DNA of 62,505 bases, filler included. It is 6 parts of 6 records of this genome, joined end to end, with 100 filler letters (N's around TTAATTAATTAA, not from the genome) between each part and the next. Parts side by side here need not be neighbours in the genome. Positions count along the whole stretch, not along the records: positions 1 to 13,443 come from DRR723986_29041; 5 more parts are not named here. One strand, given 5' to 3'. A model generated the notes under the pieces. It ran no database searches. It saw only the letters and a list, made by a program, of their open reading frames with translations, and was not told where the DNA came from. Below are positions 2-56,303 of the stretch, in pieces. A program made the position numbers and the translations under genes. Position 1 is the stretch's first letter, and each line of letters starts with the position of its first letter.

Positions 2-472
2 CATCCCTTGGGCAAATCCCCGATGATCGAAATGGATGGTCAGTTGATCACCGAATCCGCCGCCATCGTCGAACTGATCTGCGCCGCCCACGGTCCGCAC
101 ATGATCCCCGCCACCGGCACTCCCGACTACATCCGCCACCTAGAACTGATGCACTTTGCCGAAGGGTCCGTGATGACGCCGATCCTGCTCAACCTCTATG
201 TCGGCCTGCTGGGCGAGGCAGGCGCCCCCCTGCACCCCCGCATCCAGCAGGAACTGACCAGCCACTTTGCCTATATGGAAAGCCTGCTGCGTCCCTCGGG
301 TCACTTTGTGCTGGATGACCTGTCCGCCGCGGATATCATGCTCAGCTTTCCCGCCGGTGTTGTCGCCCGTCTGGGCCGCGAGGCTGAATTCCCGAAACTC
401 GCCGCCTTTACCCAAGCCATCCAAGCCCGCCCGGCCTTTCAGCGCGCGCTCAAAGCAGGCGGCGAAGCCTGA
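2..472 (+). CDS. Glutathione S-transferase family protein (5' truncated)
   Basis: Frame reads HPLGKSP...ESAAI (GST N-domain) and LSAADIM (C-domain); runs off the window start. Confidence 0.9.
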   Translation, partial: HPLGKSPMIEMDGQLITESAAIVELICAAHGPHMIPATGTPDYIRHLELMHFAEGSVMTPILLNLYVGLLGEAGAPLHPRIQQELTSHFAYMESLLRPSGHFVLDDLSAADIMLSFPAGVVARLGREAEFPKLAAFTQAIQARPAFQRALKAGGEA

Positions 473-641
473 CGTAAAATCTAAAGGCGTGCGCAAAACA
501 GCGCGCGCGCCCAAAAGCTTGCCGAGTGTCAAAGCTCCGACTGACAAAGTGGCCCATAAATGCTCTCCAAAACCCGGCTCCCAATGATCTTACCTTCCAC
601 ATGCCCCTCCTGCGCCTTGCCCCACCACGCATCTTGCCGCG

Positions 642-671
642 AACGGCAGTTGCAAGCCCAACTTGTATCTC
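642..671 (+). repeat. Degenerate copy of a 30-nt imperfect palindrome (AAYGTCCGCT-N10-AGCGGACRTT-like)
   Basis: AACGGCAGTTGCAAGCCCAACTTGTATCTC; left arm and GCCCAA align with the copies at 6172 and 6449. Confidence 0.4.
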
Positions 672-729
672 GGGGTTTCTCGCTGCGGGTGCCCACAGTA
701 TGAGTTCCTGCAGCACTTGGAAAACAACG

Positions 730-759
730 CACCGCAACGCTGAGCTAAAATCGGACATT
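730..759 (+). repeat. Degenerate copy of the 30-nt palindrome (right arm retained)
   Basis: Ends ATCGGACATT, just before the AT-rich segment. Confidence 0.35.
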
Positions 760-985
760 CGTCATCAGCGATCGGACAATGGGTGCCTGTGAACTTTCCA
801 CTATTGGTAATTTTGGAACAGACTGAGTAATAGTTTCACAAGCGAGGCTAAGCCTCAACTCTCGCGCTTGATTAAAAGTGACAAAAACCACCGCTTCAGA
901 TAGCACTCATATAAAGCTTACTCTTTCGAAGAATGCTATCTAACTGGCCCTTTTGAAAAAACCTGAAATAAGGAACACCTGGATA

Positions 986-1651
986 ATGAAGATAAAAATT
1001 CTCGGGATCTTGTCTTCTACCTTTTTAATCTTCTTCCCCTATTCAGTTTTCAGTGAAACCCCCAACTTTGAAGCATCCATACAGATGTTGAAAAACGGAG
1101 AGGTTGAACAGTTTTCAGATATATCAAAAGGCAATCGTACTGCTTTGTTGGAGATGGATGAGAACGGGATAACTCTCTTAGAGTACGCAGTATTTATAAC
1201 TGGTGACGATCAAAACATGCACGGCTACCCACAGGTCGTAATGTCTCTCCTCGATGAGGATTTTGAAGTAAATCCAGAATACAAAGAAACCCTCATTAAA
1301 AGAATTCTTCTGGCAATAAGATCACTCGATAAGAACAAATCTAGAATTGATTTGAGTGATGGTATGAAGAGTATTTTGGACAGATCTGCTTTCGTGGAAT
1401 TACTATCTCACGTAGTCATGATCTCTGGCGATGAGCGCCCCACACTATCAGAAGAACTAGCTATTACTTCCATTCTGCAAATATGCGATAAAAGAAGATA
1501 TTCCAAAAACGACACGAAAAGAGTTAACGTCGAAGCTCTCTCCCAGATATACAGAGCAGTTCCCGATACTCAGCGCTTATTTTTAAAATCATACGTTGAA
1601 ACAAATATCCTTGCTGCTGACTGCATCAAGTCCTTCACAAGAGGTTCATAA
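986..1651 (+). CDS. Secreted hypothetical protein with one ankyrin-like repeat, low GC
   Basis: ATG 986 gives a signal peptide MKIKILGILSSTFLIFFPYSVFS; DENGITLLEYAV...GYPQVVMSLLDEDFEVN resembles the ankyrin consensus. Confidence 0.6.
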   Translation: MKIKILGILSSTFLIFFPYSVFSETPNFEASIQMLKNGEVEQFSDISKGNRTALLEMDENGITLLEYAVFITGDDQNMHGYPQVVMSLLDEDFEVNPEYKETLIKRILLAIRSLDKNKSRIDLSDGMKSILDRSAFVELLSHVVMISGDERPTLSEELAITSILQICDKRRYSKNDTKRVNVEALSQIYRAVPDTQRLFLKSYVETNILAADCIKSFTRGS

Positions 1652-1871
1652 TGGCAACCGAAAGACAAGAAATTATCAGTGGTGCGCCCTCTGGCTGAGG
1701 TGGAAGATGCAGACGGTAATCCCTTGCCGGACTTTGCGCATCCCAAGCCGCTCAAAGACACGCTGAACAAGGGCCGGGTTGTACAGGCGGCACTTAGTGG
1801 CATTTCTGTTCCCGCGGCAGGGCCTCGTGATATGGAAAACTTCCACTCTCATGGATTAGCCGCGCGCACGC

Positions 1872-2216
1872 TCAGTTAAACGATCCAATCCCGTTCAACT
1901 CAGCGCTTTCAACATTGTCCTGCGCGCCAATGCGCGTCACAAACTCTGCCTCTCGCCCCTCGGGCACCGCAAACAACGCAATGCGCAAGCTGTCATCGTC
2001 AAACAACATCTTTTCAAACTGGATGTCTGCACCCGCATCAAGCCGTGCAATGCTCTGCGCAGCCTTTGCCGGATCCTGAAACATCACGATGACCTCGCCG
2101 GGCACAAATTCCACCTGCTCAGCCCCCCCTGCCACAACATTTTGCACCTCGTTCGAGGTCTGCGGCGATCCCGCCATCCCAACTGTCATAGCAACGGCTA
2201 ATAATAAGAACTGCAC
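1872..2216 (-). CDS. Small secreted protein resembling a stand-alone S8 peptidase prodomain (fervidolysin/I9-like)
   Basis: GTG start after a purine-rich RBS; hydrophobic N-terminus; FVPGEVIVMF...VESAELN pattern. Confidence 0.6.
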   Translation of the reverse strand: MQFLLLAVAMTVGMAGSPQTSNEVQNVVAGGAEQVEFVPGEVIVMFQDPAKAAQSIARLDAGADIQFEKMLFDDDSLRIALFAVPEGREAEFVTRIGAQDNVESAELNGIGSFN

Positions 2217-2340
2217 CCGCGCGCCCCTTTTTCCGTGGTTCGAACCGCCGATGTAACCCGCACAAATCAAGTTACAACCCCGCCACACCCCGCCCCCGGG
2301 CACGTGACCAAGGGTCATAACACCCCGCCCAAAATCGCTT

Positions 2341-2357
2341 TGTTACAGAATGTTACA
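2341..2357. promoter_or_regulatory. Direct repeat TGTTACA-N3-TGTTACA, possible OmpR/PhoB-family binding site
   Basis: Perfect heptamer repeat with 10-bp period in a divergent intergenic region. Confidence 0.4.
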
Positions 2358-2466
2358 AAATCGCCCTCATCCCTCACCATCGCGCGAGACAACCGACACG
2401 TCATTGATCCTGCCCCTATCTGCAGGCTTACAGTTCCACAGATACTTTCGATAACGAGGTCCCAAA

Positions 2467-2952
2467 ATGACAACTCGCACCTTCCCGCCCCTCAACGTCC
2501 AGACCCTTGGGCTGATGTTCATCTCTGGCTTTTTTGCCAGCAACGCCTTTGACCTCTGGGGACAGATGATCAGCCCCGCACTGGGATGGGCCAACCTGTC
2601 GCCCCACGGGCTTGCGCGCAGCCTGCTGTCCACGCTTGGCCTGCCCTCGGGCGATTTCGCCGGGTACTTTGTCCACTTCTACCTTGTGGGCCTGATCGGC
2701 TATCCGGTGGGCTGGTTGTTCATCTTTAACCCGATTTGGACCCGCGTCATGGGCCACACCCACTGGTTCCTGCCCTCTGCGATCTATGGCTTTGGTCTGT
2801 GGGTCTTTGCCATCGGTGGCATCACCACAATCGCGGGCCTGCCGTTCTTCCTCGGCTTTACCGGCATCACTTGGGTCGCTCTGGTCGGCCACGTGCTCTA
2901 CGGTATCGTCATGGTTGCCGTCATGCGCCTGATCACTCGCAACGCGGCCTGA
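2467..2952 (+). CDS. Hypothetical membrane protein (about 4 TM)
   Basis: GAGG RBS, hydrophobic segments, host-like codon usage. Confidence 0.8.
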   Translation: MTTRTFPPLNVQTLGLMFISGFFASNAFDLWGQMISPALGWANLSPHGLARSLLSTLGLPSGDFAGYFVHFYLVGLIGYPVGWLFIFNPIWTRVMGHTHWFLPSAIYGFGLWVFAIGGITTIAGLPFFLGFTGITWVALVGHVLYGIVMVAVMRLITRNAA

Positions 2953-2961
2953 TCCGTTTGT

Positions 2962-2997
2962 AAAAACAACCGCCCAAGAGCCAAACCCTTGGGCGGT
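2962..2997 (-). terminator. Intrinsic terminator between convergent genes
   Basis: ACCGCCCAAG/CTTGGGCGGT stem, followed on the minus strand by TGTTTTT. Confidence 0.65.
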
Positions 2998-3004
2998 CTG
3001 CCGT

Positions 3005-4279
3005 TTAACGCTCGGCCACAACCGAACCAAAACCACGCCCCAGACGGCCCCACGCGTACAGCGTCAAAGCCATCGCCCCAATCGCCGCCACCACAAACGG
3101 CATCCCCAGCGCCACCTCACGAGACATGCTGATCTCAGCCACGCTGACAATCACCCCCGACAAGATCAACCCAACCGGCATCATCCCCCAGGCCAACAGG
3201 CGGTAAATACTGTTGACCCGGCCCAGCAGTTCATTCGGGATGGTGCGCTGACGATAAGACACCGACACCGTGTTCCACACCAACCCGGTGAATTCAAACG
3301 CCGCCAGCACGCAGGCCAACGCAATCCCATTGGGCGCCAGCGGGATCGCGATAAACGCAAGACCCGACGCCAGCGTCATCCACTGCGCCGCCGACCCCGG
3401 CCCCATCTTCAGAACAATCCGGTCCGCAACAAAGCCTCCCAGAATGCCGCCCACAGCCCCAGCTGCCAAAATCAAGCCATAGCCCGTGGCCCCCAGCCCC
3501 AGATTTTCCTGCACATACAAAACAAGCGCGATCACCACCATCTGATGCAGCAAATTCCACACCCCGGTCAGCCCTGCGAGCAATCGCAACAACGGCGCGC
3601 CGCGCAGATAATCCACCCCTTGCTTTAGCTCTTCCCGCCAGTGCCCGCCGTTGCTACGATCCGGCGTAAATGTCCCGCGCACCGTCAGCATCAGCCCCAC
3701 CGCCACCACAAAAGCCACCGCATTCAACGCAAACGGCAACCAGATCACCGAGGCGATCAAAAACGCGCCCAGCGCGGGGCCCAACAGCGAATTCCCGACC
3801 AGCTCCACGCTCCAAAGCCGCCCATTGGCGCGCTCTAACTGCGTCGCCGGCACCAGCGCGGGCAACATCGTTTGTGCTGCATTGTCTCGAAACACCTCGG
3901 CAATGCCCACAACCAAGGCACAGCCCAGCAACGCGCCAAACAGCACCGGCATCGACGTGCCATCCCCGGCCGGGGCCGCCAAAGGCAGCGACAGCCAAAT
4001 CACCAGCCCCGCCGCCCCAAACGCCAGCGCCCGCACACAATCCATCGCCAGAATAAGCCGCCGCCGATCCACCCGGTCCGTGATCACCCCCGCAGGCAGC
4101 GCAAACAGAAACCACGGCAACCGCAACGCCACAGGCATCAAGGCAATCATCAACGGATCACGGCTTAGCAGCGACGCAATCCACGCCCAAACCACCACGG
4201 CTATGCCATCGGCCAGATTGGTCATCCCACTGGCCACAATGAACCGCGGCAATGGGTCTAATCGAAACGGGGTCTTCAT
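3005..4279 (-). CDS. MFS transporter (MFS_3/DHA3-like efflux)
   Basis: About 12 TM; motif A GVITDRVDRRR; RQRTIPNELLGRVNS. Confidence 0.9.
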   Translation of the reverse strand: MKTPFRLDPLPRFIVASGMTNLADGIAVVVWAWIASLLSRDPLMIALMPVALRLPWFLFALPAGVITDRVDRRRLILAMDCVRALAFGAAGLVIWLSLPLAAPAGDGTSMPVLFGALLGCALVVGIAEVFRDNAAQTMLPALVPATQLERANGRLWSVELVGNSLLGPALGAFLIASVIWLPFALNAVAFVVAVGLMLTVRGTFTPDRSNGGHWREELKQGVDYLRGAPLLRLLAGLTGVWNLLHQMVVIALVLYVQENLGLGATGYGLILAAGAVGGILGGFVADRIVLKMGPGSAAQWMTLASGLAFIAIPLAPNGIALACVLAAFEFTGLVWNTVSVSYRQRTIPNELLGRVNSIYRLLAWGMMPVGLILSGVIVSVAEISMSREVALGMPFVVAAIGAMALTLYAWGRLGRGFGSVVAER

Positions 4280-4317
4280 ACTCTCACACGCACCTTTGTT
4301 AATGTTCAGCGCTTTAC

Positions 4318-4348
4318 TCTGTAATTCCTCAAGTCAACTTGAGATCAA
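4318..4348 (-). promoter_or_regulatory. SoxR-type promoter/operator for the MFS gene
   Basis: Minus strand TTGATC-TCAAGTTGACTTGAGGAAT(19 bp)-TACAGA; the dyad CTCAAG-N4-CTTGAG matches the soxS SoxR box. Confidence 0.8.
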
Positions 4349-4471
4349 TCCCTAAATTCCCAAATGGCAAATTCCTAAAGTCGGTCCGCACAACGTGTTG
4401 GTCAATATTCGTGCGATCACCGACATACAGGCTCACTGCACATCACAATACCCGCCCTTCAGCAACGTCAC

Positions 4472-4777
4472 TCAATTGGCACCCCCATGATACCGGCCAA
4501 TGGCAATGCAGATCGCAGCGATAACGAACGCGATCACGCCGCCCCAAACACCCGCAGCAAGCCACGAAATGGCGTGTCTCATGAGACGCAGCAGCATCGG
4601 TGCCCCGATCCCCCAACACGTGACAAAAGCAATAGGAAGACCAAGCCCTGCCGCCCAAGGCAAAATGGACGGATTTGAAAAAAGTGCAGGCCCCACAATT
4701 GCCAGCCACCCAAGGATCGCCGCAAGGTTCACTGCCCGCCTAAGATCTTTTTTGCTGTATGGGCTGGTCTCTTTCAT
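4472..4777 (-). CDS. Small hypothetical membrane protein, possibly C-terminally truncated
   Basis: Three hydrophobic segments; stops shortly after the last TM. Confidence 0.55.
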   Translation of the reverse strand: MKETSPYSKKDLRRAVNLAAILGWLAIVGPALFSNPSILPWAAGLGLPIAFVTCWGIGAPMLLRLMRHAISWLAAGVWGGVIAFVIAAICIAIGRYHGGAN

Positions 4778-4943
4778 CTTGCCAACTTTTGTCGCAGCTT
4801 TTCGCTCAAGCTAATCTCCAGGATCGGCTCGCAGACATGTCATGAACCGAACATCCCGCAAATGAAGCACACCCGATCTTCGCAATCACCAACCCTCCTC
4901 AAGCCGGTGATCGCGCCCCTTGCCTCTCACTCAGACCCCAGCC

Positions 4944-5552
4944 CTATTTATGACCCCAATCATCCGGATCATCCGAGTTGTTCGGTGACAATCCCAAAAT
5001 GTCCCCCTTGGTCGAACACCCCAACCCCAGAACCGTCCGGTTTGCATAGGAAAAATACGCACACAGCTGGTTGATCTCCAACACCTCGCCATCGTCATAG
5101 CCCACGGCCCGCAGCGCATTCACATCCGCCTTGACCATCTCCGCCGGGGCCTCGGTCAACTTGCGCCCATAGAGCAACGCCGCCACCTGCGCCTCGTCCA
5201 ACGGCACATCCGTCAGATCCCGCGTCTCTAACGCTGCCCGGATCGCCAGCCCGCGGGCCTCGTCGCCCAGCTCGCGCTGCATCCCCTGAAAATGATGTTC
5301 CACACAATAAGCGCACCCGTTCAGCGAACTAACCCACACCCCCAAGGTTTCCAGAAACCACTTGGGCAGCGTATTGCCGGTGTGATGCAACACGTTCTTA
5401 TACAGAACCATGTGCCCTTCCATCGTATGAGGGCGCAAACTGTGCGACATCATGATGTTATCAACGTTGTTATCCGGCCCCGTGACCCGCTGATACAACT
5501 TCTTCAGCTTCCCCGTCGCCTCTTCAAACGGCACCGTTTTAATCCAGACCAT
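4944..5552 (-). CDS. Peroxidase-related AhpD/CMD family protein
   Basis: SSLNGCAYCVEHH motif; GAGGAGG RBS before ATG 5552. Confidence 0.88.
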   Translation of the reverse strand: MVWIKTVPFEEATGKLKKLYQRVTGPDNNVDNIMMSHSLRPHTMEGHMVLYKNVLHHTGNTLPKWFLETLGVWVSSLNGCAYCVEHHFQGMQRELGDEARGLAIRAALETRDLTDVPLDEAQVAALLYGRKLTEAPAEMVKADVNALRAVGYDDGEVLEINQLCAYFSYANRTVLGLGCSTKGDILGLSPNNSDDPDDWGHK

Positions 5553-5708
5553 GCGGCCTCCTCCCCTCAATCCGATTGCATTGCCAGCACCCTAGCCACA
5601 ATACCCACCCACTGCGAGGCCCAATAAATCCCCACAATTGCGCCGCTGCCCCGGCTGACCTACCCTCGCAACAGGACCGCCAAACGCCCCAACCCCCGGA
5701 GCCCCCGC

Positions 5709-6125
5709 ATGATTGCCTACGTCACCGTCGGAGCCGACGACATCCCCCGCGCCAAACGCTTCTATTGCGCCTTTCTGCCCGCCCTGAACTACACCCTGAC
5801 CCAAGGCCCCGAGGGGCTCAGCTACGCCCTGCCCGTCCCCGCAGGCCAATCGCCTGTGCTACCAGATTTCTACGTAAAACCCACCTTCGACGGCCGCCCC
5901 GCCACCCCCGGCAACGGCACCATGGTCGCGTTCGAGGCCAAATCCCAAACCCAAGTCCGTACCCTCCACGCCGCCGCCCTCGCAGCAGGCGGCACAGACG
6001 AAGGCCAACCCGGCTTCCGCCCCAGCTACGGCCCCACCTTCTACGTCAGCTACCTGCGCGACCCCCAAGGCAACAAAGTCGCCCTCTTCTCCAGCAACCC
6101 CAATGATCCCAACCGGGACGGGTGA
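5709..6125 (+). CDS. VOC (glyoxalase/bleomycin resistance) family protein
   Basis: MIAYVTVGADD, GNGTMVAF, YLRDPQGNK. Confidence 0.9.
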   Translation: MIAYVTVGADDIPRAKRFYCAFLPALNYTLTQGPEGLSYALPVPAGQSPVLPDFYVKPTFDGRPATPGNGTMVAFEAKSQTQVRTLHAAALAAGGTDEGQPGFRPSYGPTFYVSYLRDPQGNKVALFSSNPNDPNRDG

Positions 6126-6171
6126 AGTGAGGGTTACCGGGGCAAAAGAGGATGGAGCCGATCTATACGTA

Positions 6172-6201
6172 AATGACCACTTCCAGCCCAAAGCGGACCT
6201 T
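6172..6201 (+). repeat. 30-nt imperfect palindrome copy, left of the small ORF
   Basis: AATGACCACTTCCAGCCCAAAGCGGACCTT; 15 nt identical to 6461-6475. Confidence 0.7.
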
Positions 6202-6250
6202 GTACTGATCGCAATCGGCGCTAAAGTCTCGGCGATCAATGGGGGTGCAC

Positions 6251-6460
6251 ATGACCGTATTAGAAAGTGTGATAGAGCTTGTGGAAGGCATTTCACCCAA
6301 GTGTATTTGTGACGACTGCATTAGCCAAAAGCTTGAGCTGTCCGTCCGACAACATGCCAACCACAAAACTAGAGGATTGGCCAACACTCATAAGTTCCAA
6401 AGAACGAAGAGGGTTTGTTGCTATTGCGGCGTGGCTAAGTTGTCGATCAGTTTCGGCTAG
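6251..6460 (+). CDS. 69-aa Cys/His-rich putative zinc-binding protein
   Basis: GGGGG RBS then ATG 6251; CICDDC...HANH...CCYC. Confidence 0.65.
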   Translation: MTVLESVIELVEGISPKCICDDCISQKLELSVRQHANHKTRGLANTHKFQRTKRVCCYCGVAKLSISFG

Positions 6461-6478
6461 CAGCCCAAAGCGGACGTG
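6449..6478 (+). repeat. 30-nt imperfect palindrome copy overlapping the stop codon of the small ORF
   Basis: AGTTTCGGCTAGCAGCCCAAAGCGGACGTG. Confidence 0.7.
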
Positions 6479-6527
6479 GTGTTTCAGCACCAAGGGCGGG
6501 GTTCCGCCGTTCTCTGCGCAACGCTCC

Positions 6528-6557
6528 AATGACAGTTTTGCGCGCAGCGCCGACGTT
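6528..6557 (+). repeat. 30-nt imperfect palindrome copy, left edge of the signalling island
   Basis: AATGACAGTTTTGCGCGCAGCGCCGACGTT. Confidence 0.55.
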
Positions 6558-6736
6558 GCACGTCTATTGGGTTGTGCTGACTTGCGTTTGTAGAGAAATC
6601 TTCATTTTTTTCGCTGGACCCAGAAATGGAGATTCTTCCCAAATAGAATGAAATTTGCATCAAGAAGGAGGCGAAGCGAACTGAGCGGTTTCTTCGTAAG
6701 CCGAGGATATCCCCAAACAAACCAAAATTGGTTAAC

Positions 6737-7450
6737 TTACTCAGGATCGCGAAGCAAATACCCGACGCCTCTTATCGTTTCAAAGTTTTTGTCTAAGTCC
6801 GGGCAGATCGAAAGCTTTTTTCGCAAGCGGCTCACCAACCCATCGATGGATCTGTCGTTTCCGGCCCAGTCGCAACCTCTGATCGAATGTATGAGTTGCT
6901 CCCTGCTTAGCACTCGATTACGCCCCTTTAGGAAAGATAGCCAAAGGTCGAATTCCAGCTTTGTTAGCTGGATGTGATCCCCGGACGGATCAAACACCTT
7001 GCGAGCCTTTAGGTCAGTGCACACACCTTGGTAAATGATCTCAGACGATTTCAACTGAGCCGCCTGATCTGGCGCATTCCTATGCTTCATTCTACGGAGC
7101 AAACTTTTGATCCGTGCAACAAGTTCTGCCCTCGTGAAGGGCTTTACGACATAGTCATCTGCGCCGAGTTCCAAGGCAACAATCTTGTCCACTTCGTCGA
7201 GCTTACCAGACAGCACCACGATACCACCGGAACAGGAGCGACGGATATTTCTGATAACTTCATGTCCGTGGCCATCCGGCAGCAGAAGGTCCACAATGTA
7301 TAGATCAAAGGGGTTATCTTTTACCTTTTGTTCGGATTGCAGCAGTGTTCGGGCAAAAGTCACACTGAACCCCTGTTCATGCAAAACTTCAGCAACTTCT
7401 TCGGCAAGCGGAATATCGTCATCTACAATCAGTATGTTAGTTTGCTGCAT
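6737..7450 (-). CDS. OmpR/PhoB-family response regulator (TorR/ArcA-like)
   Basis: ILIVDDD, IVDLLLPD, GADDYVVKPF, winged-helix end ETIRGVGY. Confidence 0.92.
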   Translation of the reverse strand: MQQTNILIVDDDIPLAEEVAEVLHEQGFSVTFARTLLQSEQKVKDNPFDLYIVDLLLPDGHGHEVIRNIRRSCSGGIVVLSGKLDEVDKIVALELGADDYVVKPFTRAELVARIKSLLRRMKHRNAPDQAAQLKSSEIIYQGVCTDLKARKVFDPSGDHIQLTKLEFDLWLSFLKGRNRVLSREQLIHSIRGCDWAGNDRSIDGLVSRLRKKLSICPDLDKNFETIRGVGYLLRDPE

Positions 7451-7567
7451 TCGATGGCCTACCTAAAGTGAGCTTGTGCTATTCAGAACTTTTTACCCGA
7501 CCTAAGTGACCACCATGAGGTGATCTACCCAAAAAGTGTTGTTTGTACGCAATCTATACGAATTTGC

Positions 7568-7627
7568 ACACAAACTATACTTTAGGTGACGTAGCTTACA
7601 CAAACCTATATTGTCACAAAGGTTTGT
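7568..7627. promoter_or_regulatory. Repeats in the divergent RR/HK promoter region
   Basis: ACACAAAC at 7568 and 7598; inverted ACAAACCT (7600) / AGGTTTGT (7620). Confidence 0.35.
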
Positions 7628-7679
7628 CGTGGCAACTAACCGAACGACTCCGCCTGAACAAAGAGTCTTGTACGCATCT

Positions 7680-10322
7680 ATGGATCTGACCATGCTACGA
7701 CCAGCTTTCCTTCGGCACATCGGGTGCCCTAATGCGAAACTCCGCATCCTTCTTGGAGTGTGCTTTTGCCTGCTCAGCTATTTGGGCAACGCGATAAACA
7801 TTGACATGTTTTTTGGCATCAACTTTCTATTTGGATCGGTTTTCGTTTGGCTAGTTATGATTACGTTGGGACACCTTTGGGCAATTGCCGCAGCATTCAT
7901 TGGTGCGTTGTACACCGTTGAGCTCTGGGGGCACTGGTGTGCGGTAATTGTATTCACCTCGGAAGCGATTTTTGTCACGGCATTGTGCAAGCACACCACC
8001 ACCCACCGTTTGACTATCATGGTTGTGGCTTTCTGGCTTGGCATCGGCGGGCCGCTAGCTCTTGTTTTGTACACTCAGATACTGGACATCCCTTGGGCGA
8101 CGTCGGTGTCGGTTGCTACCAAGCAGGCGCTCAACGGAATACTGAATGCGATAGTCGCTTCACTGATTGCGACATCGGCATTGTATTTCTATCCGAAAGG
8201 GACGAACGCGAACGGCTTCAAAGATGAGAACTCTTACAGCGGGCTTCTTCAACAGACCTTTGGACTGGCATTGCTTCTGCCGGTACTCATGTCCGAGTAT
8301 GTAGGTCTGCAACGAAATTTCCAACGTAACATTGCTTTGGAGCTGGAACGGTCTGAATTTGACGTACGCAGCGCGTCTCGAAACTTCGCTTCTTTTCTAA
8401 GGCTTGAAACAATATTTTGGGGCACCGAAATTGCCAAACTCGATTTGACAGAAAACACTGAAAAAATTCAAAAACTCGTTGAGAAAGATGTGTCAGCTGC
8501 ACCTTCACATATTTATGCCGTGATGGACGATGGCACTTTTCAATTACTTTATGGAAAGGCCTCCTCGTGGCGGCAGCTCGCAGAACCAGAACGCGCTTTC
8601 CAAGAAGCCTTAAACCAGAATATGGGTTTATTGATCGGATGTCACGAGGGTCAGTTTACTTCTCTTTACACGCAGGGCTCAAATGCTGACTCGTTTGCAT
8701 TTATATGGCCAATTGATGCGATCAGATCCATTTCTTATCACCGGCAAACTGATGAAACTGTGTTCAAATGCTTTTCCGGACCGGCGGGAAACTTGAATCG
8801 AAACTTCGACAACACTTCTGCCATAGTGCTGCGTGATACCGACCCATCAATTGCCCGGTTGCAGTCATGGTTGGATGCCAAGCTGGTAGCGCAGGCTGTA
8901 TTTGCTGCTCAGAATCCCGTAATACTTAAAATAAGCCATCCATTGCGATCAACCGTTCTTCAGATTCAGCTGGATACTTCTACTGCGCTCCAAAGGCTTT
9001 TGTTCTTAGCCATGCTGATCGTTTTGGGAGGGGCGGCCCTTGATTTTCTGTTTCGGATGTGGATGGAAAAGTTTGCACGAACTTCCGAAGCATATTTGAA
9101 ACATGGTCAGGCTCCCTCTAACTCTCTAAATCTAAACTTTAAGGAAGACCGCCAAATCTCTCAGTCGCTACACCGTCTTTCTAGAGCGGTTGAGAATGAA
9201 GAAAAAAGTAAATGGCGGGCGCAGCGGAACTTCACCACGCTGCTCAGCCAGGCTTCAACTCCCATTTTCGCGACAAACGCTGAAGGCCTAATCAAAATCT
9301 GGAACCCCGCCATTCAAGATCTCACTGGCTTTTCAAGCGACGAGGTGTTGGGTAAGCCTATCTCAGATTTTCTTGAAGGGGAAACAGACCCGACTTTCGC
9401 TCACGGCGGCGGAAATGCTAGCGACTTATTGTTTGACGTCCCAACCAGGGGCGGCGGGTCGGTACATCTTGTTGTAAGCCGACTAAGAATTGACACAAAT
9501 GAAGAAGCGAACCCAATATCCAGCGAAAAGAAAGTCCCTCCAGTAGGTAATACCTCCTATTTTATCGCGCAAAACTTGAGTGAACTTAAGGAATCTCAAG
9601 CCAAATTGATACATGCATCAAGGCTTGCCGCACTTGGGCAGATGGCGAGCTCATTCGCACATGAGCTCAATCAACCTCTAAATGTCATTACATTATCTGC
9701 CGGGAGTCTTCTTGAGCACGCAAAAACCGGTGAAGTATCGCTGGAGTACTTGATTTCTAAAGCAGCACGTGTCGAAGAGCAGGCAGTGAGGGCAGGCAAA
9801 ATTATTCGAGGGATCCGAAGGTTTACCCTAGAAATTGAAGGTGAAGAAATCATCAACTTCGATCCGGTGGACGAGTCTAAAGAAGCCTTTGGCCTTATTG
9901 AAGAACAACTACGCCTCGAAAATATCACGGTGAACTTCCATGCACCATCTACCCCAATCAGGATCAAGGGGACCCCAATACTGTTTGAGCAAGCAATGGT
10001 GAATCTGCTCGTGAATGCAAAACAGGCAATGGAAAAACAGGCTCTGTCCGAACGGCAGGTTGACATCACCTTTGCTGATGATGGAGATAAGGTTACTATT
10101 CTGATGCAAGACTCAGGGCCGGGAATCCCGAAGAATATTATGGGACGTGTATTTGATCCCTTCTTTTCGACCAAGAAAGATGTGGGCGGCACCGGCGTAG
10201 GCCTTTACATGAGTAGGACAGTCATCGAGGCGTTACATGGTACAATCAGAGCGGTGGACGTTGATCACGGAGCTTGTTTTGAAATTAAGTTACCGACTGA
10301 ATCTGACCCGCTGGGAGGCTAA
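7680..10322 (+). CDS. Membrane PAS-domain sensor histidine kinase (start uncertain)
   Basis: N-terminal multi-TM region, PAS (IWNPAIQDLTGF), H-box FAHELNQPL, N/G1/F/G2 boxes. Confidence 0.9.
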   Translation: MDLTMLRPAFLRHIGCPNAKLRILLGVCFCLLSYLGNAINIDMFFGINFLFGSVFVWLVMITLGHLWAIAAAFIGALYTVELWGHWCAVIVFTSEAIFVTALCKHTTTHRLTIMVVAFWLGIGGPLALVLYTQILDIPWATSVSVATKQALNGILNAIVASLIATSALYFYPKGTNANGFKDENSYSGLLQQTFGLALLLPVLMSEYVGLQRNFQRNIALELERSEFDVRSASRNFASFLRLETIFWGTEIAKLDLTENTEKIQKLVEKDVSAAPSHIYAVMDDGTFQLLYGKASSWRQLAEPERAFQEALNQNMGLLIGCHEGQFTSLYTQGSNADSFAFIWPIDAIRSISYHRQTDETVFKCFSGPAGNLNRNFDNTSAIVLRDTDPSIARLQSWLDAKLVAQAVFAAQNPVILKISHPLRSTVLQIQLDTSTALQRLLFLAMLIVLGGAALDFLFRMWMEKFARTSEAYLKHGQAPSNSLNLNFKEDRQISQSLHRLSRAVENEEKSKWRAQRNFTTLLSQASTPIFATNAEGLIKIWNPAIQDLTGFSSDEVLGKPISDFLEGETDPTFAHGGGNASDLLFDVPTRGGGSVHLVVSRLRIDTNEEANPISSEKKVPPVGNTSYFIAQNLSELKESQAKLIHASRLAALGQMASSFAHELNQPLNVITLSAGSLLEHAKTGEVSLEYLISKAARVEEQAVRAGKIIRGIRRFTLEIEGEEIINFDPVDESKEAFGLIEEQLRLENITVNFHAPSTPIRIKGTPILFEQAMVNLLVNAKQAMEKQALSERQVDITFADDGDKVTILMQDSGPGIPKNIMGRVFDPFFSTKKDVGGTGVGLYMSRTVIEALHGTIRAVDVDHGACFEIKLPTESDPLGG

Positions 10323-10709
10323 ATGTCTGCAGATTTGGTAAGTTTCACGGCGCTGGTTTTGGACGATGACGAAGAAATCGTCGACGAACTTTCCGAAGCC
10401 ATCGTATTGATGGGAGGCAACGTCGACGCTTTTTCCAATCCGGTTGAGTGCCTCGAATACCTGGACACGCATCGGTGCTCGTACGACGCGGTGATCGTCG
10501 ACTTGGCAATGCCACGCATTAATGGATTGGAATTCCTGAAGAAAGCGTCGCATCTATTTGCGAATTCACCGAGGCAATACCTTGTTACTGGATTGGCTGA
10601 CGTGAGAGGTAATAAGGTTGAAAGTGACGAGATGCTTACGGTGATGCAAAAACCAATAAGTTTCAGGGAACTAAAGGAAAAACTGGGACACCCTTTGTTA
10701 TATGGATAG
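10323..10709 (+). CDS. Single-domain response regulator
   Basis: LVLDDD, IVDLAMPRING, conserved T and KP; starts directly after the HK stop. Confidence 0.85.
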   Translation: MSADLVSFTALVLDDDEEIVDELSEAIVLMGGNVDAFSNPVECLEYLDTHRCSYDAVIVDLAMPRINGLEFLKKASHLFANSPRQYLVTGLADVRGNKVESDEMLTVMQKPISFRELKEKLGHPLLYG

Positions 10710-10833
10710 TCGGAAGGGTGCCCCAGTAAGCGCAGACCCACCTAAAACAGGGAAAGGTCCGCGACTTCCGGCTCTATGGTAGGCAGTAGTCCCGTGAGTG
10801 GTGGTGCCTGTGAGCGCGGAATTGTTTGTTTTG

Positions 10834-11376
10834 CTATTTCCCTCGTTGCTGGCAAAGATAATTTTCGGCCCCTCGCCGCAAGTCATCAAATTTGCTGCCC
10901 CAGCGAATACTGGCATTCACTGCGGCTTCTAGAGCAGTTAACAGCTCCTCTTGGGATTTTGGTTCGCCGACGACACAATCTGCGTAAAGTTTAGGGTAAG
11001 CATTATTACCAGACAAATTTCCTTTTTGGGTCATGATCATAATTGGCACTCGTACATCCATCATTCTAATGATGCGGACAAAGCTCCTCAAGCGCCCCTC
11101 GTCCAAGGGCTGGTCGAGTCGAACTACAATCATCGCCCATTCTTCGGGATCTGCGGAAACAACTTTGAATGTGGCATCCAAGGATGAGGAACACGCTACT
11201 TCGTAGCCCAAGCTCTCGAACCCTAACTTGACATTACGGAACGTGGCTTCCTGAGATACGACACAGGCAACGCACTTTGTTCTGAAGTTACTCGCCGAGT
11301 ACAGGTCAGCCAAATCGCTTCCCAAGGGCTTAAGTTTTTCGAGACCAAATGTGCTATCAAGTTTGTAGGCTTCCAC
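10834..11376 (-). CDS. Pseudo-receiver-like protein
   Basis: Receiver-like beta/alpha pattern (LGYEV, WAMIVVRLD, VPIMIMT) lacking the acidic pocket and the canonical phospho-Asp. Confidence 0.55.
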   Translation of the reverse strand: MEAYKLDSTFGLEKLKPLGSDLADLYSASNFRTKCVACVVSQEATFRNVKLGFESLGYEVACSSSLDATFKVVSADPEEWAMIVVRLDQPLDEGRLRSFVRIIRMMDVRVPIMIMTQKGNLSGNNAYPKLYADCVVGEPKSQEELLTALEAAVNASIRWGSKFDDLRRGAENYLCQQRGK

Positions 11377-11684
11377 AGGTACATCCTCAGTTCTTTCAAT
11401 TGAGTAGCTACACCTTGAGTGTCCAATGGGTTCGACAGGAGTGTATAATTCTGTGTTTTTTTAGTGCAAGGAAGGTGTGTTTCGGTTGGGGCTTTCGTGA
11501 TTAGCATCCCTACCTTTGGCTGCCTGTTCAAGATGTGCCTCCTGCCCTTGGCGCAATTCCAATTTGACGATCCTCAGGCTAGGGCCCATCTGCGACCATG
11601 TCGTCTGGCTTGCTCCTCGCTAAGTTCCTGCCGTTACTTGCATTGATGGCGAAGGACCGGCCTCCGAACTTGAAGTCAAATTTC

Positions 11685-11760
11685 AATGTCAGCTTCGGAC
11701 TGTTAGCCGTCTGAATACAGGGTTTGATTCAAAGGCAGCTCTGGACCGTCGTGAGACTTT
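11685..11760 (+). repeat. Two degenerate 30-nt palindrome copies at the right edge of the island
   Basis: AATGTCAGCTTCGGACTGTTAGCCGTCTGA (11685-11714) and AAAGGCAGCTCTGGACCGTCGTGAGACTTT (11731-11760). Confidence 0.5.
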
Positions 11761-11907: not shown

Positions 11908-12285
11908 ATGCAGTTCACCCAAGCCGGCATCATTCTTTTCACACAACACTACGCCGCCTGCGTCCGTTTCTATCGCGATGGCCTTGGCCTCCCGCTCCTG
12001 CTCCAAATCGACCGCCCCGGCGAACGACTCACCACCTTTGCGCTTGGCGATACCTATCTGATGGTCGAACCCGGTGGCCACGCTCATGACGGCTCCAAAC
12101 CCCTTGACGCCTCCCCCCTCAAGCTCCGCTTCAATGTCCCCGACGTGCGCGCCACCTGTGCCCATCTGCGCGACAAAGGCATTCCAACCACGCTTTTCAC
12201 CCACACATGGGGCACAACGGCTGAATTCCACGACCCAGACGGCAATCAATGCGCCCTGCGATCAGACACAGGCTTCGGCGCCTAA
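11908..12285 (+). CDS. VOC (glyoxalase) family protein
   Basis: FYRDGLGL, LRFNVPDV, FHDPDGN. Confidence 0.88.
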   Translation: MQFTQAGIILFTQHYAACVRFYRDGLGLPLLLQIDRPGERLTTFALGDTYLMVEPGGHAHDGSKPLDASPLKLRFNVPDVRATCAHLRDKGIPTTLFTHTWGTTAEFHDPDGNQCALRSDTGFGA

Positions 12286-12375: not shown

Positions 12376-13443
12376 ATGCCCGACGATCTACTCAGCGGTA
12401 ACGCCCCCGCCACCTACGACGCCTCCTCGATCGAGGTGCTCGAAGGGCTGGAACCCGTACGCAAACGTCCCGGCATGTATATCGGGGGCACGGACGAACG
12501 CGCCCTGCACCATCTGGTCGCCGAAGTACTCGACAACTCCATGGACGAAGCCGTCGCTGGCCACGCCTCCCGGATCGAGGTCGAACTCCACGCCGATTAC
12601 GCCGTCACCATCCGCGACAACGGCCGCGGCATCCCCATCGACCCGCACCCCAAATTCCCCGGCAAATCCGCGCTCGAGGTCATCCTCTGCACCCTGCACG
12701 CAGGCGGTAAATTCTCGGGCGACGCCTATGAAACCTCCGGCGGTCTGCACGGGGTTGGTGCCTCTGTCGTCAACGCGCTCAGCGATTCCATGGTCGTCCA
12801 AGTCGCCCGCAACAAGGAACTGTTTGAACAACGTTTTTCCCGCGGCATCCCGCTGGGCGGTGTGGAAAAGGTCGGCGCAGCCCCCAACCGGCGCGGCACC
12901 ACCGTCACCTTTCACGCCGATGAACAGATCTTTGGCCACCACCGCTTCAAACCCGCCCGCCTGTTCAAATCCATCCGCTCCAAGGCCTACCTGTTCTCCG
13001 GCGTTGAAATCCGCTGGAAATCCGAAATCGACGACGGCGAAACCCCAACCAGCGCGACCTTCCACTTTCCCGGCGGCCTGTCCGACTACCTGACCGAGAC
13101 ACTGGGCAAGGCCTCGACCTACGCCGATGCGCCCTTCGCGGGCACCGTCGACTTCAAGGAGAAATTCGGCACACCGGGCAAGGTCGAATGGGCCATCAAC
13201 TGGACGCCCGCGCGCGATGGCTTCATTCAATCCTACTGTAACACCGTCCCAACCCCCGAGGGCGGAACCCACGTCGCAGGCTTCTGGTCCGCCATCGTCA
13301 AAGGAATCAAAGCCTACGGCGAACTGGTGAACAACAAAAAAGCCGCGCAAATCACCCGCGACGACCTGCTCACCGGCGGCTGCGCCCTGATCTCGTGCTT
13401 TATCCGCGAACCCGAATTTGTCGGCCAGACCAAAGACCGCCTT
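12376..13443 (+). CDS. parE: DNA topoisomerase IV subunit B (3' truncated)
   Basis: YDASSIEVLEGLEPVRKRPGMYIGGTD, EVLDNSMDE, LHAGGKF; alphaproteobacterial ParE-type sequence. Confidence 0.9.
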
Positions 13444-13543
13444 NNNNNNNNNNNNNNNNNNNNNNNNNNNNNNNNNNNNNNNNNNNNTTAATTAATTAAN
13501 NNNNNNNNNNNNNNNNNNNNNNNNNNNNNNNNNNNNNNNNNNN
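13444..13543. other. Artificial contig spacer
   Basis: N44-TTAATTAATTAA-N44. Confidence 0.99.
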
Positions 13544-20410: not shown

Positions 20411-20510
20411 NNNNNNNNNNNNNNNNNNNNNNNNNNNNNNNNNNNNNNNNNNNNTTAATTAATTAANNNNNNNNNNNNNNNNNNNNNNNNNNNNNNNNNN
20501 NNNNNNNNNN
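20411..20510. other. Artificial contig spacer
   Basis: N44-TTAATTAATTAA-N44. Confidence 0.99.
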
Positions 20511-20779: not shown

Positions 20780-20809
20780 TAGTTCCGATTTTGCCCCAAA
20801 GCGGACAAT
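20780..20809 (+). repeat. Copy of the 30-nt palindrome family seen in contig 1
   Basis: TAGTTCCGATTTTGCCCCAAAGCGGACAAT; shares CCCAAAGCGGAC with 6172 and 6449. Confidence 0.5.
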
Positions 20810-21323: not shown

Positions 21324-22211
21324 ATGATGTCGGACGCCACTTTGACAGGGCGTAATTTCAATTTCATTTCAGGTTTGCCTAGATCAGGGTCAACCTTATT
21401 GTCCGCGATCTTGCGACAAAACCCAAAATTTCATGCTGGTATGACCAGTCCCGTGGGTGGCTTGTTTACAAATCTAATCGCGTCTGTAAGCGCAGGTTCG
21501 GAAATGGCCCCAATGGTCAACACAGAACAACGCAAGCGTTTATCAAAGGGCTTGTTTGAGAGCTATTATGCCGATCTTCCGACTGATCGCACAATGGTGT
21601 TTGATACCAACCGCACCTGGACAGCCAATCTAGCCGCCGTGACAGAACTTTTCCCAACTGCGAGGGTCATATGCTGTGTACGTAATGTGGCGTGGGTGAT
21701 GGACAGCATGGAACGACAATTTCAATCAAACGCATTTGAAAACACACGCCTATTCGGTGACGCTGGTCAGCGCAGCACCGTATTTACCCGCTGCGAGGCG
21801 CTCGCGAACCGTAATGGCTTGGTAGGATACGCTTGGTCTGCCCTGCAGGAAGCACTCTATAGCCAGAATGCGGACCGACTTTTGATCGTGGATTACGATC
21901 TCTTGGCAGCACGGCCCAGCGATGTGATCAATCTGATTTATGGCTTTCTCGACGAAGAGCCTTTTGATCATGATTTTGAAAATGTTGAGTATGACGCCCC
22001 GGCCTTTGATGAAAACCTGGGCGTGTCGGGCCTACATAAGGTTCATAAAAAAGTGCAACCGATGCCTCGCCGCACCATCCTGCCACCCGAATTGTTTGAA
22101 CAGTATTCCAAGCTTAATTTCTGGCAGAATCTAAAAGGCAGTGCTGCGAAGATGATTACGCATCAACCTGAGCCGCTTGAAGTGATCAAGGATCAGATGA
22201 TTGATGCATAA
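21324..22211 (+). CDS. PAPS-dependent sulfotransferase
   Basis: 5'-PSB loop SGLPRSGSTLL; 3'-PB-like VRNVAWVMDS; AAGGA RBS. Confidence 0.9.
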   Translation: MMSDATLTGRNFNFISGLPRSGSTLLSAILRQNPKFHAGMTSPVGGLFTNLIASVSAGSEMAPMVNTEQRKRLSKGLFESYYADLPTDRTMVFDTNRTWTANLAAVTELFPTARVICCVRNVAWVMDSMERQFQSNAFENTRLFGDAGQRSTVFTRCEALANRNGLVGYAWSALQEALYSQNADRLLIVDYDLLAARPSDVINLIYGFLDEEPFDHDFENVEYDAPAFDENLGVSGLHKVHKKVQPMPRRTILPPELFEQYSKLNFWQNLKGSAAKMITHQPEPLEVIKDQMIDA

Positions 22212-27438: not shown

Positions 27439-27538
27439 NNNNNNNNNNNNNNNNNNNNNNNNNNNNNNNNNNNNNNNNNNNNTTAATTAATTAANNNNNN
27501 NNNNNNNNNNNNNNNNNNNNNNNNNNNNNNNNNNNNNN
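27439..27538. other. Artificial contig spacer
   Basis: N44-TTAATTAATTAA-N44. Confidence 0.99.
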
Positions 27539-33930: not shown

Positions 33931-34030
33931 NNNNNNNNNNNNNNNNNNNNNNNNNNNNNNNNNNNNNNNNNNNNTTAATTAATTAANNNNNNNNNNNNNN
34001 NNNNNNNNNNNNNNNNNNNNNNNNNNNNNN
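33931..34030. other. Artificial contig spacer
   Basis: N44-TTAATTAATTAA-N44. Confidence 0.99.
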
Positions 34031-56203: not shown

Positions 56204-56303
56204 NNNNNNNNNNNNNNNNNNNNNNNNNNNNNNNNNNNNNNNNNNNNTTAATTAATTAANNNNNNNNNNNNNNNNNNNNNNNNNNNNNNNNNNNNNNNNN
56301 NNN
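56204..56303. other. Artificial contig spacer
   Basis: N44-TTAATTAATTAA-N44. Confidence 0.99.

Follow-up and report, generated by a model that had tools for sequence, protein, structure and literature searches.

Several described systems bear on accessory genes that lie between short repeated sites with no recombinase beside them. Cis-mobilizable elements (CIMEs), described for Streptococcus integrative and conjugative elements (ICEs), are att-flanked, integrase-less remnants of integrative elements, and tyrosine-recombinase integration, as with the lambda att core, leaves each of the two junctions with the same core of about 15 bp. On Acinetobacter plasmids, Xer-dependent pdif sites bracket gene modules; a dif site measures 28 nt, with two 11-nt arms that bind Xer on either side of a 6-nt centre. 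Integron attC sites consist of paired core sites, RYYYAAC...GTTRRRY, bounding a site of 57–141 nt, and the smallest integron cassettes have a size range that includes 277 bp. As a single strand, an attC site forms an imperfect hairpin in which the structure, and not the sequence, is conserved. Repetitive extragenic palindromes (REPs) are stable stem-loops with tens to hundreds of copies in a genome, which also has a single-copy gene, flanked by REPs, for an HUH Y1 transposase. One end of a REP bears the tetranucleotide GTAG or CGTC, as described in the excerpted text of PMC3733652, and REPs form fast-evolving families in other alphaproteobacteria, according to the excerpted text of PMC5082802. 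Finally, many gene hotspots contain no mobile-element genes, and recombination is raised in the core genes beside them, as the available part of Oliveira et al. 2017 (PMC5635113) reports.

Here we analyse a window of 62,505 bases, meaning the whole stretch of DNA under study, which is made up of six contigs joined by five N44-TTAATTAATTAA-N44 spacers. An earlier note on this DNA had described seven same-orientation, 30-nt imperfect palindromes (units), all in contig 1 (1–13443), as sites of a possible attC-like system of gene capture. The pattern in that note is by analogy closest to Xer-dependent dif modules, which are bracketed by imperfect palindromes of ~28–30 nt that may face either way and whose recombinases are encoded at other places in the genome; the unit here differs in being GC-rich and, by eye and with no dif reference sequence, in having no dif-like AT-rich arms. 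Contig 1 is a chromosome piece from a marine bacterium of the roseobacter group (Paracoccaceae). We report that the conserved feature of the real repeat is a sequence core and not a hairpin, and that two direct copies of this core bound a one-gene segment of 277 bp.

The 277-bp segment and its 15-nt core

The exact 15-mer CAGCCCAAAGCGGAC occurs in contig 1 at 6184 and 6461, 15/15 identical, in direct orientation and at a spacing of 277 bp, in the following setting:

5709–6125, plus strand: VOC1, a gene of the glyoxalase family (Pfam)
6172–6201, plus strand: unit copy 1, core 6184–6198, 47 nt past the VOC1 stop; 3/20 mismatches to the consensus
6199–6475 (equivalently 6184–6460), plus strand: 277-bp segment present here and absent from the closest relative, bounded by the two cores
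6251–6460, plus strand: small open reading frame (ORF), 69 codons from the ATG at 6251 (73 from 6239)
6449–6478, plus strand: unit copy 2, core 6461–6475; 4/20 mismatches, left third formed by the end of the small gene
6461–6523, plus strand: islet of native GC content (0.65), consisting of core 2 and an ancestral flank in common with the closest relative, to which it is similar

The comparison that carries the finding is with locus L001, a Paracoccaceae metagenome-assembled genome. It is the closest relative among 80 loci obtained from a genome-collection scan with the CMD-like protein encoded upstream of VOC1, and its DNA is 91–94% identical over 1–466, 1859–4379 and 4872–6125. L001 has a single unit copy, 71 nt past its VOC1 stop. 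With the register fixed by the core, we compared 12 nt of left flank and 48 nt of right flank with those of the two copies in the window. The left flank of L001 agrees with copy 1 at 9/12 positions (null P 7e-4) and with copy 2 at 5/12, whereas the right flank agrees with copy 2 at 28/48 (null P ~1e-5) and with copy 1 at 13/48 (null mean 12.3). Local alignment to L001 gave 29/39 on the copy-1 side (left flank and core), a score reached by 0/200 shuffles, and 42/66 on the copy-2 side, reached by 1/200; the segment between the cores had no significant match in the L001 spacer (16/200 shuffles were as good). GC content is 0.48 (foreign) over 6199–6460, 0.65 (native) over 6461–6523 and 0.455 over 6524–6736. 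Because the one copy in L001 has hybrid flanks, the left being that of copy 1 and the right that of copy 2, we consider it shown, at the level of sequence comparison, that the 277-bp segment was inserted or deleted through a crossover inside the 15-nt core.

The units that the earlier note had placed on either side of a 69-aa ORF are thus borne out as two identical direct cores, and its statement that there is no target-site duplication is wrong for this ORF, which has the 15-nt direct repeat on both sides. Its expectation of an empty site in relatives held in that L001, which is without the insert, breaks exactly at the unit (one insert, the sole testable case). No locus showed the form foreseen, with the two VOC genes joined: VOC1 is matched in L001 alone of the 80 loci, by a protein of 93% identity, and the second glyoxalase-family gene, VOC2, has no tblastn match at E<=0.01 in the 80 loci.

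The small gene inside the segment is real: eight homologues align with it, at 52–69% identity (family members: P0002–P0009; L082, 2501–2710; L083, 4001–4210). Its protein of ~70 aa contains the pattern CxCDDC...CxxC and belongs to no Pfam family; CDDC, VRQHANHKTR and a CxxC near the C-terminus are invariant in the homologue alignment, and the C-terminus (KLSIS...) is common to the three closest of the eight. Two homologues are plasmid-borne, in Sphingomonas paeninsulae and Sphingobium sp. YC-XJ3; the chromosomal ones include that of Sedimentitalea sp. CY04. Both plasmid copies lie between ParB and DUF736/HTH/S26-peptidase (TraF-like)/lytic-transglycosylase (VirB1-like) genes, surroundings that are a conjugative-element backbone, and one of them is near tyrosine recombinase genes. 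The family is rare, and its members may be zinc-binding, DNA-binding proteins of mobile elements. We also considered, and rejected, a decayed duplicate of this gene near 11585–11743 (best match E 0.7).

We read the segment as the scar of att-type, sequence-specific recombination in an ordinary hotspot, and give this reading, the best we have, a probability of roughly 45%. It is favoured because of the identical core at both junctions together with the mobile-element pedigree of the cargo gene. The crossover would have been a conservative, sequence-specific event within the core, catalysed by a recombinase that is encoded elsewhere or has been lost since, and would have left an integrase-less segment between att-like cores. 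Such a segment resembles a CIME in its short core directly repeated at both junctions, in the single core at the relative's empty site, in having no recombinase inside and in a cargo gene with plasmid homologues in conjugative-element backbones. It differs from a CIME in measuring only 277 bp with one gene, and in a core that seemingly also occurs inverted and in unrelated intergenic places. We know of no cognate element or integrase for this core.

A number of points weigh against the att-type reading. About 8 independent exact 15-mer pairs occur by chance in the 62-kb window, and for that reason the weight of the core lies in the 277-bp geometry and the comparison with the relative. The empty site is known from one relative only, whose core differs from that of the window at 4/15 positions, and the event could have been a gain in the window or a loss from L001. 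No recombinase gene was found in the window (59 ORFs, Pfam), and the insert cannot be autonomous. The Sphingomonas plasmid homologue has no core downstream of its stop codon, which sets the core apart from the small-gene family. The earlier note had looked to a profile scan of relatives for further copies, and we found none at E<0.1 beyond L001 in 1.34 Mb from the 80 loci. A 66-nt unit query against 72,556 plasmids gave one match, 24/27 in unannotated intergenic DNA of Paracoccus aminophilus pAMI4, at E=5. Six other filled spacers showed no comparable flanking repeats. Finally, short-homology recombination between two pre-existing copies of the motif would leave the same picture.

The proposed family of palindromes

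The seven units had been aligned to AAYGTCCGCT-N10-AGCGGACRTT, which we scored over its 20 specified positions. The mismatches were 10 at 642, 7 at 730, 3 at 6172, 4 at 6449, 5 at 6528, 6 at 11685 and 8 at 11731, and the two 10-nt arms formed 1, 2, 7, 5, 5, 5 and 5 Watson–Crick pairs of 10, in the same order. As a background, the number of sites in 1.34 Mb of related alphaproteobacterial loci was 13 at <=5 mismatches, 90 at 6 and 515 at 7, which scales to 0.13, 0.9 and 5.2 per 13.4 kb, against 3, 2 and 3 observed in contig 1. Only 6172, 6449 and 6528 are above background, and the consensus itself was derived from these three. Three units are at chance level, and a fourth is borderline:

642–671, plus strand: claimed unit, chance-level match; 10/20 mismatches, 1/10 arm pairs
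730–759, plus strand: claimed unit, chance-level match; 7/20 mismatches, of which the background has 5.2 per 13.4 kb
6528–6557, plus strand: borderline unit where GC falls on the left side of the two-component island; 5/20 mismatches, alone not significant
11731–11760, plus strand: claimed unit, chance-level match; 8/20 mismatches, with 23 contig 1 sites equally good

Unit 6528 was recovered by no profile and has a possible L001 counterpart in a MAFFT alignment only. Compared in pairs, the seven units agree on average at 14.7/30 positions, against 7.6 in random sets; this value is inflated and carries little weight, because the units were chosen by eye for similarity. Used as a search model, the stated consensus returned a single site at <=3 mismatches in the whole window (6172), and we replaced it with the core and with profiles. 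The consensus drawn by eye is shown to have swept in several chance matches. What survives of the seven-member family is 6172 and 6449, which are strong, and 11685, which is probable, while 642, 730 and 11731 fall away; the GC switches at which the units were said to lie are genuine.

Two copies stand beside the pair that bounds the segment:

11685–11714, minus strand: diverged unit at the right GC switch of the island, inverted relative to copies 1 and 2
20780–20809, plus strand: further unit copy in contig 3, containing the 12-mer CCCAAAGCGGAC, in low-GC DNA

A profile trained on the two strong copies, 6172 and 6449, had its best non-training match in 1.4 Mb (both strands) at 11711–11682 on the minus strand, with E 0.65, 0.19 or 0.046 depending on the training set, the last when the L001 copy was added. 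By inspection, the 11685 unit is identical to copy 2 at 21/27 positions. It is thus a probable family member in inverted orientation, so that the claim of a common orientation holds for 6172 and 6449, which are direct, but not for 11685, which reads best on the minus strand. In contig 3, CCCAAAGCGGAC, which is part of the core, recurs at 20795; the copy at 20780, left out of training, reached E 10 only and is, judged by its letters, a probable member as well. Together, the inverted 11685 copy and the contig 3 copy suggest that the same motif may be used or carried elsewhere. Among the relatives, locus L060 has a candidate copy between convergent genes (E 0.2–0.7).

The start of contig 3 (20511–20900) contains a tRNA-like 3' end (...GGTTCGAATCC...CCA), where no complete tRNA is detected by ARAGORN. 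The DNA beyond this end is low in GC and contains the unit copy 240 nt on and then a sulfotransferase gene (21324–22211). By analogy, this opening looks like the usual island inserted at a tRNA gene.

Over the 7 aligned copies, the conserved columns are 13–27, the right half of the unit. In the 6449 unit, the left "arm" consists of the final codons and the stop TAG (6458–6460) of the small gene. The units had been presented as imperfect palindromes and structure-recognised sites, and neither folding nor pairing bears this out. None of nine stretches of 56–61 nt folded better than shuffles (z +0.27 to -1.61), and the minimum-energy folds of the unit stretches bypass the proposed arms. The ten proposed arm pairs are paired in 54% of cells over the 7 aligned copies, a value matched by 340/500 shuffles, and the compensatory arm changes for which the earlier note had proposed a test are not found among these copies, which show no covariation. 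An Rfam scan of 1–27438 at E<=1 had no match near the units, and a promoter and terminator scan of contig 1 found nothing at them, with totals at or below shuffle level.

Other candidate motifs were tried and dropped. A canonical alphaproteobacterial hairpin, TGTCCGC...GCGGACA, had 144 matches in 1.4 Mb against 93, 126 and 158 in control arrangements. The hexamer GCGGAC/GTCCGC occurs at shuffle frequency in all six contigs, and 4/9 of its contig 1 copies are intergenic. A longer element of ~125 nt showed pairwise identity of just 42–48% and gave no new copies. A literature search for the motif strings returned, among the matches listed, unrelated primer-type ones only.

Competing explanations at the CMD–parE hotspot

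A doubtful but serious alternative is that the units are a decayed, dispersed repeat similar to REPs or to miniature inverted-repeat transposable elements (MITEs), with no dedicated enzyme, and that housekeeping or illegitimate recombination acted between short copies, adding or removing the DNA enclosed by them or next to them. Copies or near-copies do lie in unrelated intergenic places (contig 3, L060 and pAMI4), although each of these outside matches is not significant and, as said, no copy at E<0.1 turned up in the relatives beyond L001. There is also some palindromy: pairing is 54% in register against 24–41% in 4/6 slid registers (53% at +3), yet there is no stable stem, and the canonical hairpin is no commoner than its controls. 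In their shortness, weak palindromy, intergenic position and sometimes inverted pairing, the units resemble REPs and REP doublets forming hairpins (REPINs); they differ from them in being few in the sequence examined and in having neither GTAG nor CGTC at either end in the 7 aligned copies, the tetranucleotides being those given in the excerpted source. No gene for a REP-associated tyrosine transposase (RAYT) is among the 59 window ORFs. The fast evolution of REP families in other alphaproteobacteria speaks for the dispersed repeat, as do REPs serving as insertion targets, in work cited within the excerpted text of PMC5082802; the Bradyrhizobium Br-REP1/2 sequences in that text differ from the unit. 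A further point against the dispersed repeat is the length of the core. RecA recombination usually needs more homology than 15 nt.

The region in which the segment lies is delimited by two core genes, with VOC2 next to the second:

4944–5570, minus strand: CMD-like/peroxidase-related gene, 208 aa, left core gene of the hotspot; named by sequence reading, no Pfam match
11908–12285, plus strand: VOC2, a gene of the glyoxalase family (Pfam)
12376–13443, plus strand: parE (topoisomerase IV subunit B), right core gene of the hotspot, truncated by the contig end (Pfam)

The CMD-like gene is present in all 80 related loci, and in 29 of them it is divergently adjoined by parE, which is 76–94% identical there. 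The spacer between the two genes ranges in these 29 loci from 107 to 5251 bp (median 625; <=250 bp in 12), and measures 6805 bp here. The CMD–parE spacer is a gene-flux hotspot. In the next-closest relative, Falsiruegeria mediterranea (CMD 87% and ParE 94% identical), its cargo is a VOC gene, an HxlR-like regulator and an adenylate cyclase-like gene, as named from ORF reading. In L001 (1–9445), VOC1 is followed by urease accessory and structural genes and urea ABC transporter genes, which replace the island, VOC2 and parE, and because of this cluster the point behind VOC1 is one of different cargo or of rearrangement.

Such turnover could be ordinary: the accessory genes would have entered through double homologous recombination in the core genes on either side, after transfer by gene transfer agents for instance, and the repeats would be incidental. 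This account is unlikely in our view, even though much fits it, namely the spread of spacer lengths with different cargo in each relative, the absence of mobility genes from the window and the three of seven units that are chance matches. It leaves unexplained both the identical 15-nt repeat with hybrid flanks at the two junctions of the 277-bp segment and the fact that the best extra profile match in 1.4 Mb falls at the right GC switch of the island. The mobile-gene-free hotspots in the available part of PMC5635113, where they are common and have raised flanking recombination, share with this locus a variable cargo between the same core genes and no integrase or transposase; the model as given there needs no specific sites, whereas one indel here has its junctions in a 15-nt repeat. 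In one relative, Aliisedimentitalea sp. MJ-SS2 (L019), a 19-nt inverted repeat (16/19 complementary; 8255–8273/9862–9880) brackets the filled spacer; it is unrelated to the unit and could be due to chance.

For the larger differences from L001, namely the two-component island and the inserts at 632–1858 and 4380–4871, ordinary hotspot turnover is the most likely origin. Window 467–1858 stands in place of 45 bp of L001, and within it the 632–1858 insert is 1.2 kb of 44% GC, containing a 232-aa ORF with a signal-peptide-like start and no Pfam match. A protein atlas placed this ORF near ankyrin-repeat clusters with a score of 0.93 but only 138/256 features in common, so that its ankyrin-like identity is a weak lead. 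Window 613–631 matches the empty site of L001 at 16/19, reached by 5/300 shuffles, and the left break of the insert lies within ~10 nt of the claimed 642 unit, itself a chance-level match; at this site in L001, the convergent GST gene and 148-aa gene have a GC-rich hairpin between them. The second insert, 4380–4871 (492 bp), stands in place of 20 bp and carries a 101-aa membrane ORF, and no repeat was found at its edges.

At the other end of the scale, an undescribed, sequence-specific capture system of Rhodobacterales strikes us as improbable. In such a system, intergenic copies of CAGCCCAAAGCGGAC scattered over the genome would receive very small one-gene circles, and perhaps larger islands, through a recombinase acting in trans. 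If it existed, it would be functionally like integron cassettes or Xer dif modules, but its site would be unrelated to theirs and recognised by sequence instead of by a hairpin. This indel contributes a concrete crossover point to the question of how DNA enters hotspots that have no recognisable mobile-element genes. Should the core mark other roseobacter junctions, this would indicate that a recombination system acting in trans assembles accessory regions; should it be absent from them, the segment would be a lone scar of recombination in a hotspot of the ordinary kind.

The two-component island occupies 6737–11376 (GC 0.48) and holds four genes:

6737–7450, minus strand: OmpR-type regulator (Pfam)
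7611–10322, plus strand: PAS/HisKA/HATPase kinase (Pfam)
10323–10709, plus strand: receiver (Pfam)
10834–11376, minus strand: 180-aa ORF

No close match to the island was found in the 80 loci, where generic kinase and regulator matches of 23–32% identity occur in 5, and the 5.7-kb region matched the 72,556 plasmids only over 37–93 nt, in response-regulator genes or unannotated DNA. The kinase has a long, membrane-rich N-terminal half without a Pfam match, and the 180-aa ORF at the right end belongs to no Pfam family, amid receiver-domain genes. At the right unit, GC rises from 0.50 on the left to 0.585 on the right, and the right edge has no similarity to L001.

It is very improbable that the island is a non-autonomous transposon (mobile insertion cassette) with the inverted units 6449 and 11714 as its ends and a transposase in trans. 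Its edges do resemble each other in inverted orientation, at 21/27 within the unit and over ~80 nt overall (the inverted right zone against 6453–6536, a score reached by 4/200 shuffles), and the right copy sits at a GC switch. The left copy, at 6449, lies outside the island, however, because the 48 nt to its right are ancestral DNA shared with L001, and a transposon with these ends is unlikely for that reason. No target duplication is seen beside the two copies. Insertion sequence (IS) elements give no support either: the earlier note had raised the possibility that the unit is the end of a known IS or MITE, and the 66-nt query matched no IS end among the 72,556 plasmids. In agreement with that note, the window has no transposase or integrase at Pfam level, in 15 contig 1 ORFs and 44 ORFs elsewhere, and no HUH gene in the same 59 ORFs. 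Direct repeats at the island ends were also considered and are not significant (182/200 shuffles equal).

The remaining idea, that the units are structure-recognised attC-like sites of an integron-type array, that is, a cluster of attC sites lacking integrases (CALIN) with the integrase in trans, is already largely refuted and hardly credible: a small single-gene segment of cassette size does lie between two same-orientation sites with no enzyme adjacent, and the core did prove to be its crossover point, but there is one such segment between good sites (6199–6475) and no array of at least two in one orientation, RYYYAAC...GTTRRRY pairs 54–147 nt apart number 0 on either strand of contig 1, the unit is ~30 nt instead of 57–141 nt, and what it conserves is sequence rather than a hairpin, excess folding or covarying arms.

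Further features of the window

The genes of contig 1 were read from ORF lists and Pfam. Those to the left of the hotspot are:

2–472: GST fragment
953–1651: low-GC 232-aa ORF
1872–2318, minus strand: 148-aa ORF
2467–2952: 161-aa membrane ORF
3005–4279, minus strand: MFS transporter
4472–4777, minus strand: 101-aa membrane ORF, no Pfam family

The joining spacers lie at:

13444–13543
20411–20510
27439–27538
33931–34030
56204–56303

GC content by contig, from 1 to 6, is 0.54, 0.56, 0.51, 0.59, 0.37 and 0.61. Gene content shows a sharp contrast, with PD40/OmpA/CarboxypepD_reg/NamZ genes in contig 5 and thrS-infC and a TRAP transporter in contig 2. The six contigs may come from different organisms, and repeats common to several of them are therefore to be treated with caution. 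Within 850 bp of contig 3 (23802–24656), there are four copies of the 11-mer CGGCAATGACG and two of a 15-mer, where the ORFs have no Pfam match; these repeats may belong to a repeat-containing gene in another frame.

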